A DNA stretch of 64,000 nt from an uncultured Alphaproteobacteria bacterium (GCA_902536655.1 CACAYF010000002.1:76123-140122), one strand, 5' to 3'. Shown: positions 13,163 to 63,907, counted from the stretch's first letter. Numbers and translations are program-made. Notes: generated by a model from the letters alone, not told the origin.

Positions 13163-15049
13163 TTAATTTAGTTGATCGATGACATCATCATTTATTGTAA
13201 TCTTATATTTTTTTCTTAATGCTTCAGAAAATTGAGCAAGTAAATCAATTGTAAGATCATCTTTTATTTTCTTTGTGAATTCTTTGATTTCTTTTTCATC
13301 ATTACTCAAATTATTTAAAATTTCCGCGTTTTTGGCTATTATAATTTCACTATTACCCCTTTTTTCGATATTTATATCACCAAGATTTGAATCAAATATC
13401 TTGCTGATTAAGGGTATTGGTAACTCACTACTATCAGGAAGAACTCTGGTAAATGGTTTGACTCCTTTAATTTCAAGTTTGTACTTATTTGCAACATCCT
13501 TAAAACTCTTACCATTAGAAATTTCATTTTTAATTTTCTCAGCTTTATCTTGCGCATTTTTTAATTTTAAATCAAAAATAAGTTTTTTTCTGACTAACTC
13601 TTTTGATTCATCAAGGGTTAACTGTCTCGGTTTTATTATATCAGTAACTAAACTGATTGCTAAACCTTCATCTTTGTCAATATCAATTATATTTCCCTCT
13701 TCATTTATTTTTTGATTGAAGATCGTTCTGAGAATTCTTTCGTCTTGAAACTCGTTATTTACTTGTTTATTTTGCTTAATACCTTCATTATCAATTTTGT
13801 TAGCAACAATCATTTTTACCTCTAAAATCTTTGATATTTCTGCAAAAGTATTTCCAGATGCCAATAAATCTTCAAGTTCATCTTGAAGATCAAATACAGC
13901 TTCTTTCCCTTTTTCAAGAAGTAGCTCATTTTCAAATTGCTTTTTTACTTCTTCGTATGAAACCTCTTTTCTTTCTTTGGAATCTATTATTTTTAAAATA
14001 TGCCAACCGAATGAACTCTCAATTGGTTTTGATATTTCACCTTTCTTTAAACTAAAAGTTGCTTCGATTATCTCGTCGGGTAGATCATTTTTTGTATTCC
14101 ATCCTAAATCAATATCATCTTCAGTAAGATTAGCCATTGTTTTTGCTGTAGAAGTAAAATTATTAAAATTTACTTTCTTTCTTATTGATTCTACATCAGA
14201 TTTTGAGTCTACAATGATTTGGTGTAGATATTTTTGTGCAGGCTCAACTAATAATTCTTTTCTTTCTTCATAAAGTAATTTAATTTCTTCATCAGTAACA
14301 GTTGATTTTTTTGCATATTCTTTGGCGTCTAATAAAAGTGTTTCAGCACTTCTAAACTCTTTAGACATAAAGTCTGATTTATTTTCTTCATAATATTTTC
14401 TAATTTTTTCATTTGAAGGTTTAGCAAACTCTTCTTCTTCAACCATGATAGTAAGATAATCTACCGTTCTCTCCTCTAAATTATATTTACTCAAGCTATT
14501 TTTCATAATATTTGGAATAATCAAGCTAGTACTGATTGTCTCCACCATCTGCTCTCTAGCAAGATCTTGGCGCGTTCCCTCAACATAGGAATCTTCGGTG
14601 TAACCGGATTCAGATATCAACTGTCTAAACACTAATTCGCTAAATTGTCCAAGATCGTCTTTAAATGCATCATCACGCAATATCTTATCTCTTACATTAA
14701 TATCACTGACGGATAATCCTAGTTGTAAGGCTTCATTATTAAACAATGCTCTATTAATTAATGAACTTAATGCTCTATCAACATATCCAAACTCTCTTGA
14801 TTTTTTAATATCCAATGAAGATCCAAGTAGTTTTCTTATTTCTTCAGTTTGTCTCGAGTACAATGAATAAAATTCCTGTGCAGAAACATCAATTTTCCCT
14901 ACAGTTGCAACAGTTGATTGTTTTTGTGTAACACCAACTAAATCTTCTGTTCCCCACATTCCAAAGCTAATAATTAAAATAGTTAATAAAGTACCAAATA
15001 TTATTTTTAGTATTGAGTTTTTTGAACTGTTTCTTAAAGTTGTAAGCAT
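13163..15049 (-). CDS. ppiD: PpiD/SurA-N-domain membrane-anchored periplasmic chaperone
   Basis: N-terminal TM (ISFGMWG), SurA-N-like region, rotamase-like DLGW..SKPIESSFGWHI; typical position between tpiA and trpE. Confidence 0.85.
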   Translation of the reverse strand: MLTTLRNSSKNSILKIIFGTLLTILIISFGMWGTEDLVGVTQKQSTVATVGKIDVSAQEFYSLYSRQTEEIRKLLGSSLDIKKSREFGYVDRALSSLINRALFNNEALQLGLSVSDINVRDKILRDDAFKDDLGQFSELVFRQLISESGYTEDSYVEGTRQDLAREQMVETISTSLIIPNIMKNSLSKYNLEERTVDYLTIMVEEEEFAKPSNEKIRKYYEENKSDFMSKEFRSAETLLLDAKEYAKKSTVTDEEIKLLYEERKELLVEPAQKYLHQIIVDSKSDVESIRKKVNFNNFTSTAKTMANLTEDDIDLGWNTKNDLPDEIIEATFSLKKGEISKPIESSFGWHILKIIDSKERKEVSYEEVKKQFENELLLEKGKEAVFDLQDELEDLLASGNTFAEISKILEVKMIVANKIDNEGIKQNKQVNNEFQDERILRTIFNQKINEEGNIIDIDKDEGLAISLVTDIIKPRQLTLDESKELVRKKLIFDLKLKNAQDKAEKIKNEISNGKSFKDVANKYKLEIKGVKPFTRVLPDSSELPIPLISKIFDSNLGDINIEKRGNSEIIIAKNAEILNNLSNDEKEIKEFTKKIKDDLTIDLLAQFSEALRKKYKITINDDVIDQLN

Positions 15050-59062: not shown

Positions 59063-59704
59063 TTAATTAACAGTGTTTATTTTTTCTATTTGCTCTAAAA
59101 AAGTAGAATCATCAAGCCTCATTAAAATTGAAGATCTATCATTTAATGCTGATTCTGGAGTTCGATGTAAAATTCCATGTTTTCCACCACGAAAAATTGC
59201 AACATCCCATTTATTTAAATATCTTATCGCTGATCTGTCTTTAATTATATTTTCATTTGGTTTTCCACTAATAAAAGCATTCCTGTCTGCAGCATTATCA
59301 GGGAGTAATTCTGTACCTTGTCCGGAATAAGTTACTAAACATCTATAAGGGACCATATCAACATGAAAACGTTTACAACCTCTCTCAGATCCCAACCAAA
59401 AACTTATTTTGTCTTTTTCTTGAAATAAACAAAACATTTTACAAATTTCACTCATATCATTTAACCAATTGTTAAAAAATATGTTTTTCCTAATTTTTGA
59501 TGGAATTTTTTCTTCTGTAAGTTTGATAATGTCATTTAAACTATTCTCCAATGAAACATAACCAGAAGTTGAAAAAGGAGTTAAGTTTAATCCACTAAAG
59601 AAAAGATTGAAATCCTCAGAAACTTGACGATTCAAAATCGCTAATTGATGGTTATTGTGTTTGAAATCCATTAAGGATTTTACATTTTCACAATTAAAAA
59701 TCAT
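59063..59704 (-). CDS. DUF1826 family protein
   Basis: CKRFHVD.VP.R.LVTY.G.GTE and ILHRTP motifs. Confidence 0.85.
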   Translation of the reverse strand: MIFNCENVKSLMDFKHNNHQLAILNRQVSEDFNLFFSGLNLTPFSTSGYVSLENSLNDIIKLTEEKIPSKIRKNIFFNNWLNDMSEICKMFCLFQEKDKISFWLGSERGCKRFHVDMVPYRCLVTYSGQGTELLPDNAADRNAFISGKPNENIIKDRSAIRYLNKWDVAIFRGGKHGILHRTPESALNDRSSILMRLDDSTFLEQIEKINTVN

Positions 59705-59707
59705 GAA

Positions 59708-60073
59708 TCAGAAGATAACTTCAGATAAAAAAATTGAACTATTTAGAGTATAAAGAATACTTGCGAGAATAAGATTGGTCTTAATTTTTTTATTAGTCGT
59801 ACTGCATTCTTGTTCAGTGCAACATTCATCATCTTGGCACTTTATTTTTTTATTATAAATTTCAAAAGAAATGATTAATAAAAATATAAGCGTTGTAATT
59901 GCAAAAAGATATGGTTCAGCTGCTTCTAATAACTCAGAATTTAAAAGGAGTGAGTCGATAATTAATGCATTTGAAGATAATGAAGCAAATGATAACGTTA
60001 AAGGCAAGCCACAGCATAACAGATGTGTTAGACCTATCCATAATAATGAGTATGAAGAGTAATACTTAAACAT
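59708..60073 (-). CDS. MerC-like small membrane protein
   Basis: THLLCCGLP in TM1, about 3 TMs, Cys-rich loop CQDDECCTEQEC. Confidence 0.65.
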   Translation of the reverse strand: MFKYYSSYSLLWIGLTHLLCCGLPLTLSFASLSSNALIIDSLLLNSELLEAAEPYLFAITTLIFLLIISFEIYNKKIKCQDDECCTEQECSTTNKKIKTNLILASILYTLNSSIFLSEVIF

Positions 60074-60079
60074 ATTTAA

Positions 60080-62044
60080 TTAATAGAATAGCTTTAAATT
60101 AAAATTAAAACTTCTACCAGGTAATTGAACTTGACCCTTCTTTGCCTCAAGATGATCACGACCAACTGTATTTAGAAGATTGGTTACACTAAACATTGCA
60201 TGGCCAGATAAATCTGAGTACATGAAATCTTTTGTAAGATCAAAATCTAATCTTGAATGACCACCTGTTCTTGTATAAAAAGGACCTGTGAATTCTTTAT
60301 CAAAATAATGATAATATTTAATATTAGTATCCCATTCCTCATTAATAAGTTGTAAACCAACATTTACTTTTGATTGTGGAATTCTAGTTATAGCCTTGTC
60401 ATTGGATGTTCTGTAACCCTTCAAGAATTCTCCTACAAAGTTAGCAAGGAAATCAAAATCATCGAATTTCGTTATGCCATACTGACCAGTTAATTCTACT
60501 CCAGTAAATAATGCATTATATTGATCGTGAATAACAACATTAAAATCTTCACCTTCAACAGTTTGTGTATTACCGTTTCTATCTGCAGCAATAAAATCAT
60601 TGATGTAATTATAATAAGCTTCAATTTTTAATTTATTTAGATTTTCATCATAATGATATCCAAGTGATACATTGTAAGAACTCTCTTTATCTAAGTTTGC
60701 GTTACCTGTCTCAACATTTTCAAGAGCATGATGAGGACCGTCTGCGAATAGTTCGACAGCATTCGGTGCTCTTTGCGTAAAATCAAAACCTAAAAATACA
60801 CTATTGTTTGGAATGATTTCTCTTTTGGCAGTGGAAGAAAATGCAACAGGGAAAAAACCTTTCTCATACTGTGTTGTTTTCAAATTTACGGATTCAATTC
60901 GACCACCAAGATCTAAATCAAATAAATCAAATTTTAACTTTTCGAGAGCAAATAAAGCAAAACTATTGGTCTTCGTTGGAGTTAAATGACCTTCCTCTGC
61001 TCCTGTTGCACCTTGATTTTTATTCATAAAATGAAAACCTATTAATCCTTCTTCATTTTGATTGAATAGAGATTTGTGATTCAGTGATGTTTTTATTTCA
61101 TATATGTCATTGAAAAATGTTATATTATGATTGTTACCATCGCCTGTTCTTTCAGCATGATTATATTCGGAGACAGTGCCTTCTAAGTTAAACTTTTCAA
61201 AGATTAAATAATTTAATGCCAGTGATGAATCAAAATTTATTGTATTTCTTGTAGGGTTAAGCGATGTCATATTTTCTTCACCTTCAGGACCAGGATTTTG
61301 ATACACAGCTTCAAGTTTGTCCAAAGAAACTCCAAAATGATTCTGACCATCATTGTATGTTATTCCAACGCCACCAGATGTCATGAACTTTGATGAATTT
61401 GCTTGCTTAGTTGAAACATTTGCTAAATCGTAAGGGCCCGCACTTACAAAACTTCCAGAACCTCTAACAGTAAAATTGTCCACAGATTTACCAAATTTTA
61501 ATGCGGTTCCCAACTCTCCACCTGAGGTCTTGTATCCAAAACCTAATTGGACGTTTTCGTCAGAAAGAGGCTTATCTACTGTAATTAAAGGGTTTATAAT
61601 GTTTACAACTCCAGCAAACCCATTGTTTCCATAAAGTAACGTACCGGGCCCTTTAATAATTTCTATTTTATCAATTAATAATGGATCATATCCAACAATA
61701 TGATCTTCACCAAATTCGGAAACATCACCTAGTGAAGAACTGTTTTGTAAAATTTTAACTCGCGAATTACCAAGACCCCTGATTATTGGACGTGATGCGT
61801 TACCCAGACCTTGTGAAGCAATTCCTGGTAAATCTTTGAGCATCTGACCAATAGAGTATTGTCTGCTTTTTTCTAGTTCATGAGAATCATATAAAATATT
61901 ACCCCTATCACTTTCATATTCGGTACTCGGCTTAATTTTAGATGTTATAAATACATCGGGTGCAACAAATATAGATTCTAATTTTTCAGCATTTACATTA
62001 GCTACTAACAATGCGGTCAAGACGAAGGTAACTATTTTATACAT
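60080..62044 (-). CDS. TonB-dependent receptor, ZnuD-like
   Basis: Signal peptide, plug (LPGI..RPIIRG, IEIIKGPGTLLYG), EDH, ELFADGPHHA, PGRSF..., aromatic C-terminus. Confidence 0.9.
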   Translation of the reverse strand: MYKIVTFVLTALLVANVNAEKLESIFVAPDVFITSKIKPSTEYESDRGNILYDSHELEKSRQYSIGQMLKDLPGIASQGLGNASRPIIRGLGNSRVKILQNSSSLGDVSEFGEDHIVGYDPLLIDKIEIIKGPGTLLYGNNGFAGVVNIINPLITVDKPLSDENVQLGFGYKTSGGELGTALKFGKSVDNFTVRGSGSFVSAGPYDLANVSTKQANSSKFMTSGGVGITYNDGQNHFGVSLDKLEAVYQNPGPEGEENMTSLNPTRNTINFDSSLALNYLIFEKFNLEGTVSEYNHAERTGDGNNHNITFFNDIYEIKTSLNHKSLFNQNEEGLIGFHFMNKNQGATGAEEGHLTPTKTNSFALFALEKLKFDLFDLDLGGRIESVNLKTTQYEKGFFPVAFSSTAKREIIPNNSVFLGFDFTQRAPNAVELFADGPHHALENVETGNANLDKESSYNVSLGYHYDENLNKLKIEAYYNYINDFIAADRNGNTQTVEGEDFNVVIHDQYNALFTGVELTGQYGITKFDDFDFLANFVGEFLKGYRTSNDKAITRIPQSKVNVGLQLINEEWDTNIKYYHYFDKEFTGPFYTRTGGHSRLDFDLTKDFMYSDLSGHAMFSVTNLLNTVGRDHLEAKKGQVQLPGRSFNFNLKLFY

Positions 62045-62081
62045 TGATTTTCCATTAAATAAGATGTTGATATTATTTTTA

Positions 62082-62096
62082 TGTTATATTATAACA
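62082..62096. promoter_or_regulatory. Zur box
   Basis: Perfect 7-1-7 palindrome TGTTATA-T-TATAACA matching the proteobacterial Zur consensus core; 37 bp upstream of the receptor; overlaps a candidate minus-strand promoter TTGACA (62112-07), N18, TATAAC. Confidence 0.82.
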
Positions 62097-62165
62097 CTTT
62101 CTATTGTGTCAACCCCAATCAAATAAAATCATTGATTTTTTTAAAACTTTTAATAATTTGTAAGC

Positions 62166-62501
62166 ATGAGATGTGTAAAATTTTTTGTTTTAAGTGTTTT
62201 AATACTTAGTCTGTCTAGTTTGACGATCTCAGCTAAAGTTATTTCGTATTGTTTAGATAAAAAATATTCTCAACTTAATGAAACAAATCATGTTCACTCA
62301 AACAAATCTTGTCATTCTCAATCAAATGATGTTGAAGACATATGCTTTAATTGTGAGTGTTATTATACTCAAATAAATACATACCAAGTTGACGATATTT
62401 TAGATGCTCATATCAACAATTCTTCATTTAATAACTTAAAGTTTACATTTGATTCCCTAAACCCTTTACTTAGACCACCCCCGCCAAAACTTTTTGCCTG
62501 A
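62166..62501 (+). CDS. Putative CutF/CruR(DUF2946)-like metal-sensing leader protein
   Basis: Signal peptide, HxH..CH, CxxCxC (C60, C63, C65), C-terminal LRPPPP four codons before the stop. Confidence 0.7.
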   Translation: MRCVKFFVLSVLILSLSSLTISAKVISYCLDKKYSQLNETNHVHSNKSCHSQSNDVEDICFNCECYYTQINTYQVDDILDAHINNSSFNNLKFTFDSLNPLLRPPPPKLFA

Positions 62502-62564
62502 TTTTATTTCAAAGTTTTGAGACAAATTTTGTCTTGAATTTATTTCTTATTATTAGGAGAAAAG
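62490..62564 (+). promoter_or_regulatory. Predicted anti-SD/SD RNA helix with a nested hairpin
   Basis: CTTTTTGCCTGAT (62490-62502) pairs with ATTAGGAGAAAAG (62552-62564); nested AGACAA-ATT-TTGTCT hairpin near 62516-62539. Confidence 0.6.
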
Positions 62565-63212
62565 ATGAAGATATTTTTATGCAAAATAGTTCTAGTGTGT
62601 ACTTTTATAGCCATAAAAGATATTAATGCTAGACCGATTTCATATCCTGGAGGCTGGACATTAATGCAGGCAAATGATTTTATTAAACATAGTTTTCATT
62701 TGCATTATAGTCCATCAATTGATTATTCAATAGGTTATAGAGCAGCATATTGGAGAGAAAAAGAATGGCAATTTCATGGACTTCAATTAAATTATCTCAT
62801 AAAAAGACTAAATAAACCTAAGTCGCAAACAAATTTTTATTTAAGGAACGGAATAGGTTTAGCAACTAGTAATTATGAAGCTTTTGAAAATAAATTTGAA
62901 CCATCCCTTTTCACAGGCATTTTATTTGATTGGGAAGATAGAAGGTTTTTTACAAGTTATCAGAATCAAGCTAATCATGCATCTTCGATAGATAAATTTT
63001 TTTCACAACAATTTAGAATCGGAGTGGCTCCTTATTTGGCTGAATATGGATATTTACATACTTGGATAATGCTTCAAGCCAACCATATGCCTGGAAGTAG
63101 TAAAAACTTGACATTTACTCCAATGTTAAGAGTTTTTAAAGGGGATTATTTGGCAGAGTTAGGTCTTAATAACTACAAAGACTTTATGTTTAACTTCATT
63201 AAAAGATTTTAG
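62565..63212 (+). CDS. Hypothetical exported protein, probable small outer-membrane beta-barrel
   Basis: AGGAGA SD, signal peptide ending INA, aromatic-rich alternating strands, C-terminal Phe (FNFIKRF). Confidence 0.7.
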   Translation: MKIFLCKIVLVCTFIAIKDINARPISYPGGWTLMQANDFIKHSFHLHYSPSIDYSIGYRAAYWREKEWQFHGLQLNYLIKRLNKPKSQTNFYLRNGIGLATSNYEAFENKFEPSLFTGILFDWEDRRFFTSYQNQANHASSIDKFFSQQFRIGVAPYLAEYGYLHTWIMLQANHMPGSSKNLTFTPMLRVFKGDYLAELGLNNYKDFMFNFIKRF

Positions 63213-63222
63213 AGGAAAAGAA

Positions 63223-63534
63223 ATGAAAAAAACTATTATCTATTTGTTTATTTTACAATTTGTATTTTTTAACAGCAGTAAAATTCTTTCGGATGAACAA
63301 TACAATGGTGATATTTTGCACGTATATGTTAATGGACTTGTATGTGATTTTTGTGCTCGTTCAATTGAAAAAATATTTTCAAAACAAAAATCAGTTGCAG
63401 CTATAACAGTGAATTTAAAAAATATGTTGATTACTATTAATTTTAAAGAAAATCAAAAATTAAGTTATGAAAAAATCACTGAAATGATTAAGGATTCGGG
63501 TTATGACGTCAGAGAAATAAAAAATGTTAAGTAA
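63223..63534 (+). CDS. Exported heavy-metal-associated (HMA) domain protein, MerP/CopZ-like
   Basis: Signal-like N-terminus, VNGLVCDFCARSIEK, C-terminal DSGY; GAGGA SD. Confidence 0.88.
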   Translation: MKKTIIYLFILQFVFFNSSKILSDEQYNGDILHVYVNGLVCDFCARSIEKIFSKQKSVAAITVNLKNMLITINFKENQKLSYEKITEMIKDSGYDVREIKNVK

Positions 63535-63907
63535 TTTCTATAAAGAATTGTTTGCACCAATATTAAGTTTATTTACAAGTTTAAGTACGCTAGTTTGTTG
63601 TGCATTACCAGCTCTGCTTGTGACTGTTGGATTAGGTACAACTTTAGTTAGTATTGTATCAATATTTCCGTGGATTGTTGTTCTATCAAAATATAAATTA
63701 TACATCTTTTTATTTGCAGGTTTTATGTTGGCTTTATCATGTTATATGGCATGGAGAAGAAATAATTCTTCATGTCCAGCAAACCCAACAGAAGCTAAAA
63801 TATGTTTGAAATTAAGGTCAACTAATTACGTTATATTAACTTTTTCGTTTGTAGTTTATATCACAGGTTTTTTCTTTGCTTTTTTAGCTGACTTAATTTT
63901 TTACTAA
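63524..63907 (+). CDS. MerT-like metal transport membrane protein
   Basis: STLVCCALP in TM1, about 3 TMs, loop CP......IC; overlaps the HMA gene. Confidence 0.75.
   Translation: MLSNFYKELFAPILSLFTSLSTLVCCALPALLVTVGLGTTLVSIVSIFPWIVVLSKYKLYIFLFAGFMLALSCYMAWRRNNSSCPANPTEAKICLKLRSTNYVILTFSFVVYITGFFFAFLADLIFY

Follow-up and report, generated by a model that had tools for sequence, protein, structure and literature searches.

A candidate CutF-type leader and a Shine-Dalgarno-masking helix ahead of a predicted outer-membrane barrel gene in marine Alphaproteobacteria

In the CutF-cutO system of Rhodobacter capsulatus, a small exported leader with several cysteines and, a few codons ahead of its stop, a PPP motif at the C-terminus is followed, after a short gap, by a gene of a metal-homeostasis operon whose Shine-Dalgarno (SD) sequence is shielded by a stem-loop (PMC9973294). 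The CutF papers (Ozturk et al., mBio 2023, PMC9973294; bioRxiv 10.1101/2025.02.05.636593) propose that a paused ribosome melts this stem-loop; in this mechanism the pause at the Pro motif depends on metal, is sensitive to EF-P and increases translation of the next gene. The Cys motif of CutF lies about 45 residues ahead of its Pro motif, and it has been argued that, with the ribosome at the latter, this distance brings the former to the periplasmic mouth of SecY (PMC9973294). Here we describe a locus of related design in a stretch of 64,000 nucleotides (nt) from an uncultured Alphaproteobacteria bacterium (GCA_902536655.1, CACAYF010000002.1:76123-140122), the whole of which we call the window. 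On its plus strand, an open reading frame (ORF) of 111 amino acids (aa; 62166..62501) ends in RPPPPKLFA and a stop codon, and after a gap of 63 nt comes the AUG (62565) of a gene for a predicted outer-membrane β-barrel. We consider it probable, at roughly 0.6, that these elements form a CutF-type switch, in which the time that the ribosome spends on the C-terminal prolines of an exported, Cys-rich leader decides whether the SD of the barrel gene is masked. The 111-aa ORF would then act in cis, and it is probably a sensor leader of the CutF/CruR kind.

The likeness to CutF extends to the rules by which CutF-like leaders are recognized in PMC9973294: the leader has fewer than 150 aa (111 aa), a C-terminal Pro motif (RPPPPKLFA) and a short gap behind it (63 nt). 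The definition also asks for an N-terminal Sec signal peptide predicted by SignalP, and by eye the N-terminus of the leader looks like one. A stem-loop shielding the SD, the element central to the CutF mechanism, is found as a predicted structure, and the last Cys lies 42 residues ahead of the last Pro. On the other hand, we detected no sequence similarity between the two leaders. CutF ends in PPPRL, whereas four codons follow the last Pro in the window; the anti-SD of cutF, as described in that source, lies wholly in the gap, whereas here it lies within the last codons and the stop of the leader. The controlled genes differ too, cutO encoding a multicopper oxidase and the gene in the window an unnamed 12-strand barrel, followed by MerP/MerT-like genes.

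CruR (Bp2923, a DUF2946 protein of Bordetella pertussis; Roy et al., mBio 2022, PMC9426467) is likewise encoded by an upstream ORF; it carries a CXXC motif, and its C-terminal arrest motif is three residues from the end. Leaders of this type head metal-transport operons that include TonB-dependent receptors (PMC9426467), and the divergent neighbour of the leader in the window is a TonB-dependent receptor. A spacing of 45 residues between CXXC and RAPP is conserved in DUF2946, and the addition of five residues abolishes copper control (PMC9426467). According to the same paper, CruR uses Rho-dependent termination over a long gap and RAPP instead of polyproline, and both its export signal and EF-P are dispensable. 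Unlike CruR, the locus in the window has as its main feature the masking of an SD over 63 nt.

For a third comparison we read and folded SecM-secA of Escherichia coli K-12. As in the window, its arrest Pro lies a few codons before the stop (five), the gap is of about 61 nt and the anti-SD is inside the leader ORF. SecM is an exported arrest peptide that senses secretion activity, not metal. Its 5′ arm begins at the arrest codon (about P+2 to P+12) and is fully within the stalled ribosome, unlike the arm in the window, which starts 6 nt past the last Pro codon and is shifted by about 6-9 nt downstream relative to secM. Recovery of the known secM helix required 90 nt of upstream context, 36 or 60 nt being too few, and the comparison serves for geometry only, with no calibration of energies. 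In the titles, abstract openings and paper sections covered from the literature on cutF/cutO stalling, on DUF2946 and on arrest peptides in connection with anti-SD or metal, the leader family of the window is undescribed, although the supplementary lists of PMC9973294, which lay outside the search, may hold these proteins. The same material describes neither an anti-SD inside the last codons nor a fixed distance from Pro to anti-SD.

The SD-masking helix and its conservation

The leader frame ends in AGA CCA CCC CCG CCA AAA CUU UUU GCC UGA, with four Pro codons (P104-P107, 62475..62486) as the presumed pause site and the stop at 62499-62501. The initial annotation of the locus had pointed out that the Leu-Phe-Ala codons, the stop and one further base (62490-62502) could form 12 of 13 possible pairs with 62552-62564, two of them G-U, the remaining position being a G/A mismatch. 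Reading the sequence base by base confirms this. The outer pairs are C62490-G62564, U62491-A62563, U62492-A62562, U62493-A62561 and U62494-A62560; then come U62495-G62559 (G-U), the mismatch G62496/A62558, C62497-G62557, C62498-G62556 and U62499-A62555, and the inner pairs are G62500-U62554 (G-U), A62501-U62553 and U62502-A62552. The anti-SD core of the 5′ arm is 62495-62499. The 3′ arm comprises the whole AGGAG (62555-62559) and the spacer and stops, as had been claimed, at the base preceding the AUG.

Folding of 62460-62580 with RNAfold returned the helix and a nested hairpin as both the minimum-energy and the centroid structure, at -19.2 kcal/mol. Shuffles of the same region gave a mean of -12.5 ± 2.3 (z = -2.90), with 2 of 200 folding equally well, and refolding of a shorter stretch yielded the same structure. 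The nested hairpin (62516..62538), also predicted in the initial annotation, pairs 62516-62525 with 62529-62538 in ten pairs around a 3-nt loop and shortens the loop of the outer helix. As a control we used 170 same-strand gene pairs of this genome with gaps of 25-120 nt, a crude set built on simple ORF calls of our own. The duplex energy of the leader-barrel pair (-10.3) is at about the 1st percentile of this set (-10.09), and no other pair has an SD motif together with pairing, by the end of the upstream ORF, of 12 or more of the 16 bases that precede the start; 12 paired bases as such were reached in five of the 170.

Homologous loci were gathered through the barrel protein, which is better conserved than the leader. 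Among 80 metagenome loci, 52 had a leader ending in PP (51 kept), 24 had none and 4 were unreadable; the corresponding numbers for 80 loci of named genomes were 61, 8 and 11. A PP or PPP ending was the selection rule for the leaders kept, and is hence present in all of them. We dropped the 4 metagenome and 11 genome loci without a recognizable barrel start, as well as L060, whose leader is cut by the end of the contig, and we counted L094, although its leader looks like a frame artefact. Pooling with 18 loci from related genomes and clustering of the region at 80% identity produced 75 clusters. The SD has an upstream partner at P ≥ 0.5 in 65 of them. For the first 42 clusters, the probability of pairing between the SD core and the leader end (last 24 nt plus 3 nt) is P ≥ 0.5 in 31 of them and P ≥ 0.8 in 18, and lies below 0.2 in 7. 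The helix is kept across gaps with a G+C content from 0.14 to 0.64 and with differing arm sequences, and an inner structure of -4 kcal/mol or below is present in 62 of the 75 clusters, in unrelated sequences.

Covariation in homologues, which the initial annotation had named as a check of the helix, exceeds that of shuffled alignments. In alignment A5 (MAFFT, 43 rows, the 13 pairs of the window helix), 64.1% of cells were paired compared with 59.3 ± 1.3 after shuffling (0 of 500 reach the observed value), and the covariation score was 0.257 compared with 0.189 (again 0 of 500), with slid controls at 0.10-0.15. Swapping arms among the 42 clusters lowered the gapless helix score from 18.4 to 14.9, and none of 20000 permutations reached the native score; the clusters are related to each other, so that all these comparisons with shuffles look more significant than they are. 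Most rows of A5 retain the core pairs (columns 14-19) and the three outermost are unpaired in 21-29 of the 43 rows, which indicates that only in the lineage of the window does the helix extend as far as the base preceding the AUG. At the second stop base, the pair is A-U in 19 cases, G-C in 7, G-U in 3 and something else in 13: UAA goes with U, and UGA with C.

The codons of the leader point the same way. A C-terminal Ser occurs in 50 of the 75 clusters, encoded by UCC in 39, UCU in 10, UCA in one and AGY in none; UCC makes up 6.4% of the Ser codons of this genome. Such a bias points to selection on RNA, and the C-terminus of the leader appears to have been shaped by the pairing of ...UCC UAA with UUAGGA.... 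Within the barrel gene family, opening of the start region costs a median of 10.2 kcal/mol where a leader is present (n = 42) and 4.3 where it is absent (n = 18; Mann-Whitney p 5e-6), in a comparison limited by its leaderless loci, many of which have no SD and are probably from other taxa. In these sequences, the leader and the predicted SD-masking helix go together. The leaderless loci (L102, L105, L109, L111, L116, L125 and others) mostly show A-rich start regions with no SD word, which suggests that they come from lineages without SD-led initiation.

Contigs from RNA libraries of three studies span the leader and the gap and run into the barrel gene. This fits co-transcription, but RNA libraries can include DNA and the contigs are no proof of a single transcript; their depth is unusable for ranking the leader against the downstream genes, and the parts that they leave uncovered are uninformative.

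Two fixed spacings in the leader family

Homologues of the leader are present in 14 of 41 related genomes, spread over five genera, with 13 of them among the 24 genomes of its own family; many of these genomes are incomplete. The order leader-gap-barrel gene holds for all 14 matches. The protein database holds 36 relatives, all of them unnamed and without Pfam domains, and the family occurs in marine Alphaproteobacteria, with named records also labelled Gamma- and Betaproteobacteria, Micavibrio, Thermodesulfobacteriota and Dadabacteria. In alignment A1, made of eight diverse members, C29, C49, H50, C60, C63, C65, S97 and the PPP are invariant. The putative metal-binding residues (62310..62360), that is, C49-H50 (62310-62315) and C60-x-x-C63-x-C65 (62343-62360), are invariant or near-invariant in alignments A1 and A3, and distant leaders ahead of distant barrel genes retain the C-H motif, a C-x-x-x-C-x-C cluster and an RPP ending. 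By eye, the N-terminus resembles a signal peptide, with basic residues and a hydrophobic stretch followed by an ISA-K site. At loci L031, L034 and L035, a membrane protein of about 200 aa, cation-diffusion-facilitator-like by eye, lies just upstream of the barrel gene; at L035 it takes the place of the leader, 25 nt from the barrel gene.

The leader has no usable Pfam or NCBIfam match. The DUF2946 profile (PF11162) gave no hit at E ≤ 10 for eight leaders, nor at E ≤ 1 for three more distant ones, and has zero matches in this genome, compared with matches in 15 of 61 genomes of the class. Aligning the leader alignment to ten DUF2946 proteins with hhalign gave a probability of 0.15%. All ten of these proteins carry R-A/G-P-P; a C-terminal RAPP is absent from the leaders, whose endings are RPPPP, DPPP, RPP, YPP and similar. 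The spacing typical of the CXXC of DUF2946 has a counterpart of similar scale and different value, with C60-x-x-C63 and 39 residues between C63 and R103. As far as the profile and hhalign comparisons show, the leader is not a member of DUF2946.

The first of the two spacings lies in the protein. The 42 residues from last Cys to last Pro in the window equal the median of the family (interquartile range 41-46), and within subfamilies the spread is of 1-2 residues. The second lies in the RNA: in 56 of the 75 clusters, counting from the first base of the last Pro codon, the centre of the SD partner falls at +10 to +15 nt, and in the window the anti-SD core occupies +11 to +15 from that base (62484). 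In 53 clusters four codons separate the last Pro from the stop (a 15-nt tail), and there positions relative to Pro and to the stop are indistinguishable. The other 22 have tails of 9, 12, 18 or 21 nt, or longer, and 16 of them are paired. Among these 16, the partner lies +10 to +15 from Pro in 11 and -5 to +1 from the stop in one; it falls beyond the stop codon with 9-nt tails and well ahead of it with 18- or 21-nt tails. The partner thus tracks Pro when the tail differs, which means that the helix is placed relative to the Pro motif and not to termination, and this favours a pause-dependent switch over plain coupling of translation. Among 11 canonical DUF2946 loci, with gaps of 42-243 nt based on crude start calls, a partner was found near +8 to +13 in three.

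A second leader of the same genome, unrelated in appearance, follows both spacings. This 101-aa ORF (contig C4 of genome G000, 13752-14057, minus strand; L129:2753-3058) has a hydrophobic N-terminus, a C...C-x-x-x-C-x-C cluster and SPPII before its stop, with the last Cys 42 residues ahead of the last Pro. The next gene starts after a 41-nt gap and encodes a 343-aa protein weakly like the Phenol_MetA_deg outer-membrane family; its spacer and SD region pair with the last codons of this leader, with the stop and with the bases that follow. Comparison with the leader alignment by hhalign gave a probability of 31% (E 5e-4) over the Cys region.

Export of the leader, its binding of metal and the pausing of its ribosome are the parts of the switch that we infer. 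The leader would be exported during its own translation, and its Cys/His motif, about 42 residues ahead of PPPP, would stand just outside the membrane channel when the ribosome meets the prolines. The state of the motif, metal-bound or free, would set the dwell of the ribosome there. In free mRNA, 62490-62502 would pair with 62552-62564, assisted by the nested hairpin, and initiation would be blocked. A ribosome with the last Pro in its P site would hold the core of the anti-SD, at +11 to +15, within its mRNA entry channel. This would leave the SD single-stranded, and a second ribosome could start on the barrel gene and on the MerP/MerT-like genes that follow. After the leader ribosome has terminated and departed, the helix would re-form.

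We modelled the cost of opening the start region (-17 to +3 around the start) for different positions of the leader ribosome. The median over 42 clusters was 10.0 kcal/mol in free mRNA and 7.8-8.0 when the last Pro occupied the A site; it was 5.1-5.4 when this Pro was in the P site, and 4.6-4.9 for a ribosome at the stop. With the last Pro in the P site (62484), the anti-SD core of the window falls within the mRNA channel, roughly in the entry channel; work cited by the CutF preprint places the helicase site at about +11 (bioRxiv 10.1101/2025.02.05.636593).

Evidence against a pause-dependent switch and rival explanations

Several observations weigh against the switch. The signal peptide of the leader was judged by eye alone. 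To the relatedness of the clusters and the make-up of the leaderless control, given above with the results that they limit, we add the 10 of 75 clusters without an SD partner and the modest outcome of a synonymous-codon test on the first 18 loci (p 0.009-0.09 for the lineage of the window, 0.0175 for L012 and 0.07-0.79 for the others), whose null is inflated as Pro codons in the resampled tails can form anti-SD words. The register is a further difficulty. A ribosome that has the last Pro in its A site (P site at 62481) would reach to about 62492-62496 and leave the anti-SD core outside, and the gain is then of at least 3 kcal/mol in only 14 of 42 clusters; RAPP-type arrests have been solved with the last Pro in the A site. 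Moreover, EF-P normally relieves polyproline pauses, and the genome has an EF-P-like gene (172.5 bits, under the cut-off of 185.8).

The window itself is a weak example of its family. In its nine closest relatives 62496 is U and 62500 is A, and the helix is a perfect one of 13 bp, which the G/A mismatch and the G-U pair weaken in the window. When 62470-62500 was forced unpaired, a check proposed in the initial annotation, AGGAG was not freed: the probability that it is unpaired fell from 0.25 to 0.05, as a second, local anti-SD (UUUCUUA, 62543-62549) takes UAGGAGA (62554-62560) as its partner once the long-range arm is blocked. Opening costs in the window are 9.2 kcal/mol in free mRNA, 7.5-8.3 with the last Pro in the A site, 6.3-8.2 with it in the P site and 5.8-7.5 at the stop. 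The modelled relief is hence 1-3.4 kcal/mol, compared with about 5 at the family median, and the dynamic range is about 3.4 kcal/mol, compared with 8.3 in the relative L002. The claim that a paused ribosome covers the 5′ arm and frees the SD therefore stands in part: it agrees with a ribosome holding the last Pro in the P site, whereas one with this Pro in the A site covers the outer half of the arm only. Likewise, the proposed likeness to the cutF-cutO switch is borne out by the leader, its motifs, an SD-masking helix conserved over the 75 clusters and an anti-SD fixed relative to Pro, and not by the model of the window, in which the SD is not freed.

The bases that set the window apart have other effects. 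The G for U at 62496 puts Ala in place of Ser, and the G for A at 62500 gives UGA in place of UAA. In comparison with the nine closest relatives and the RNA-library contigs, the window also has U for G at 62548, which strengthens the local SD-masking hairpin; relatives carry G there and have a weaker one. The long-range helix is thus weaker and the local hairpin stronger in the window than in its relatives. With the arm blocked, the model also forms a small A/U hairpin over the start codon (62560-62578, AAAAGAU...AUAUUUUU), which retains part of the opening cost.

Plain translational coupling, which we regard as unlikely though far from negligible, would have each ribosome that finishes the leader melt the helix as it covers the last codons and the stop, so that translation of the barrel gene would be proportional to that of the leader. 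The prolines and cysteines would then serve the leader as a small periplasmic metal-binding protein, or merely modulate the flux of ribosomes. The stop is indeed the position with the lowest modelled opening cost, and in 45 of the 53 clusters with 15-nt tails the anti-SD coincides with the final two codons and the first stop base, where a terminating ribosome sits; coupling accounts for all 53 equally well, and both points weigh against the switch. What coupling does not predict is the behaviour of the remaining tails, in which the anti-SD keeps its distance from the last Pro (11 of 16) and lies near the stop only once, even falling beyond it when the tail is of 9 nt. Coupling alone also leaves unexplained the invariant PP motif and the fixed spacing from Cys to Pro. 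It may also act alongside a pause-dependent switch. Transcription attenuation, with the position of the leader ribosome deciding whether transcription continues, either through Rho as in CruR or with the nested hairpin as an intrinsic terminator, seems to us very improbable. The genome has a rho gene (684 bits), CruR, a DUF2946 leader, acts through Rho (PMC9426467), and an inner hairpin structure is kept in the 62 clusters mentioned above, with a U-rich stretch behind it in 11 of 75. However, the gap of 63 nt is short, structured and C-poor, that of cruR being of 162 nt (PMC9973294); our scan found no terminator at the window locus, 64 of the 75 inner hairpins have no terminator-like tail, and RNA-library contigs span the gap, with the caveat on single transcripts given above. 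Attenuation leaves unexplained, too, that the SD is the paired element.

A role of the helix in mRNA stability or processing, or its origin as a by-product of base composition with no regulatory role, is also very improbable, if anything slightly more so. In a genome of 30% G+C, U-rich and A-rich runs pair readily, five of the 170 control gene pairs likewise reach 12 paired bases, and removal of the cutF stem-loop region alters mRNA stability too (PMC9973294). Yet the helix persists over gap G+C contents from 0.14 to 0.64 with different arms, compensatory changes are present and the SD is always the target. Attenuation and a purely structural role are thus less likely than the switch or coupling. 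In the 11 clusters with a terminator-like inner hairpin (L097, L101, L086, L170 and seven more), at least three G-C pairs are followed by a U-rich run, and some lineages may combine attenuation with SD masking.

Genes of the locus and significance

The candidate regulated gene (62565..63212, plus strand) encodes a protein of 215 aa with a signal-peptide-like N-terminus and zero Pfam or NCBIfam matches, which falls among unnamed clusters in Atlas. Its AlphaFold2 model, made from an 11-row alignment, has twelve strands and a mean predicted local distance difference test score (pLDDT) of 83.5, and Foldseek matched the model solely to outer-membrane barrels of the 12-strand type (FapF, LpxR, KdgM, NanC and autotransporter domains) with template modelling (TM) scores of 0.4-0.58. 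The next gene of the operon (63223..63534, plus strand) encodes a putatively exported heavy-metal-associated protein of CopZ/MerP type (Pfam HMA, 3.8e-10; the NCBIfam CopZ and MerP-type models match below their cut-offs), and is kept downstream in relatives. It is followed by a small membrane protein with a CC motif (63524..63907, plus strand), whose weak likeness to MerT (NCBIfam MerT/MerTP, E 0.02-0.03, far under cut-off) we take as a lead only. On the minus strand, a divergent unit (59063-62044) comprises the TonB-dependent receptor (60080-62044), a 121-aa CC-motif membrane protein weakly like MerT and a DUF1826 protein. The best NCBIfam model for the receptor is ZnuD, at 225 bits compared with a cut-off of 950, and the regulated metal could be zinc and not copper. 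Judging from these predicted genes, the setting of the locus is metal transport.

Upstream of the leader, a consensus scan found a promoter-like site (62049..62076, plus strand; TTTCCA, 16 nt and TATTAT, with TG), which is weak evidence, as the scan gives 8 hits in the region and 13.8 in its shuffles. A search of Rfam over 61900-62800 gave 0 matches at E ≤ 1. The genome is of 1.42 Mb, and its nearest named records are uncultured marine Alphaproteobacteria, part of them labelled Rickettsiales.

The CutF and CruR papers predicted that leaders sensing metals outside the cytoplasm are widespread, and only two have been studied. The family described here is large, unannotated and unrecognized by profile libraries. 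In it, the RNA half of the proposed switch can be read from the sequence, and its precise spacing rule yields a testable prediction of the pause register. The same rule explains an odd conservation, that of a C-terminal Ser nearly always encoded by UCC, and offers a simple route to further switches of this kind. A bolder reading, which we put forward tentatively and consider rather doubtful, is that a leader family without recognizable kinship to DUF2946 has reached the same device with two rulers, one of about 42-47 residues from a periplasm-exposed Cys cluster to Pro and one of 10-15 nt from Pro to anti-SD, that the P-site register is readable from it and that it controls a new envelope route for metal. 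If the two families are unrelated, metal sensing by a nascent chain across the membrane would have evolved at least twice. If the bolder reading is true, the sequence by itself would show, through the nucleotide ruler, that the ribosome pauses with the last Pro in the P site, and the device would control a new envelope metal route made of a 12-strand barrel with MerP-like and MerT-like proteins. The locus flags an uncharacterized outer-membrane barrel with MerP/MerT-like partners as a candidate metal-regulated system in abundant, streamlined ocean bacteria.

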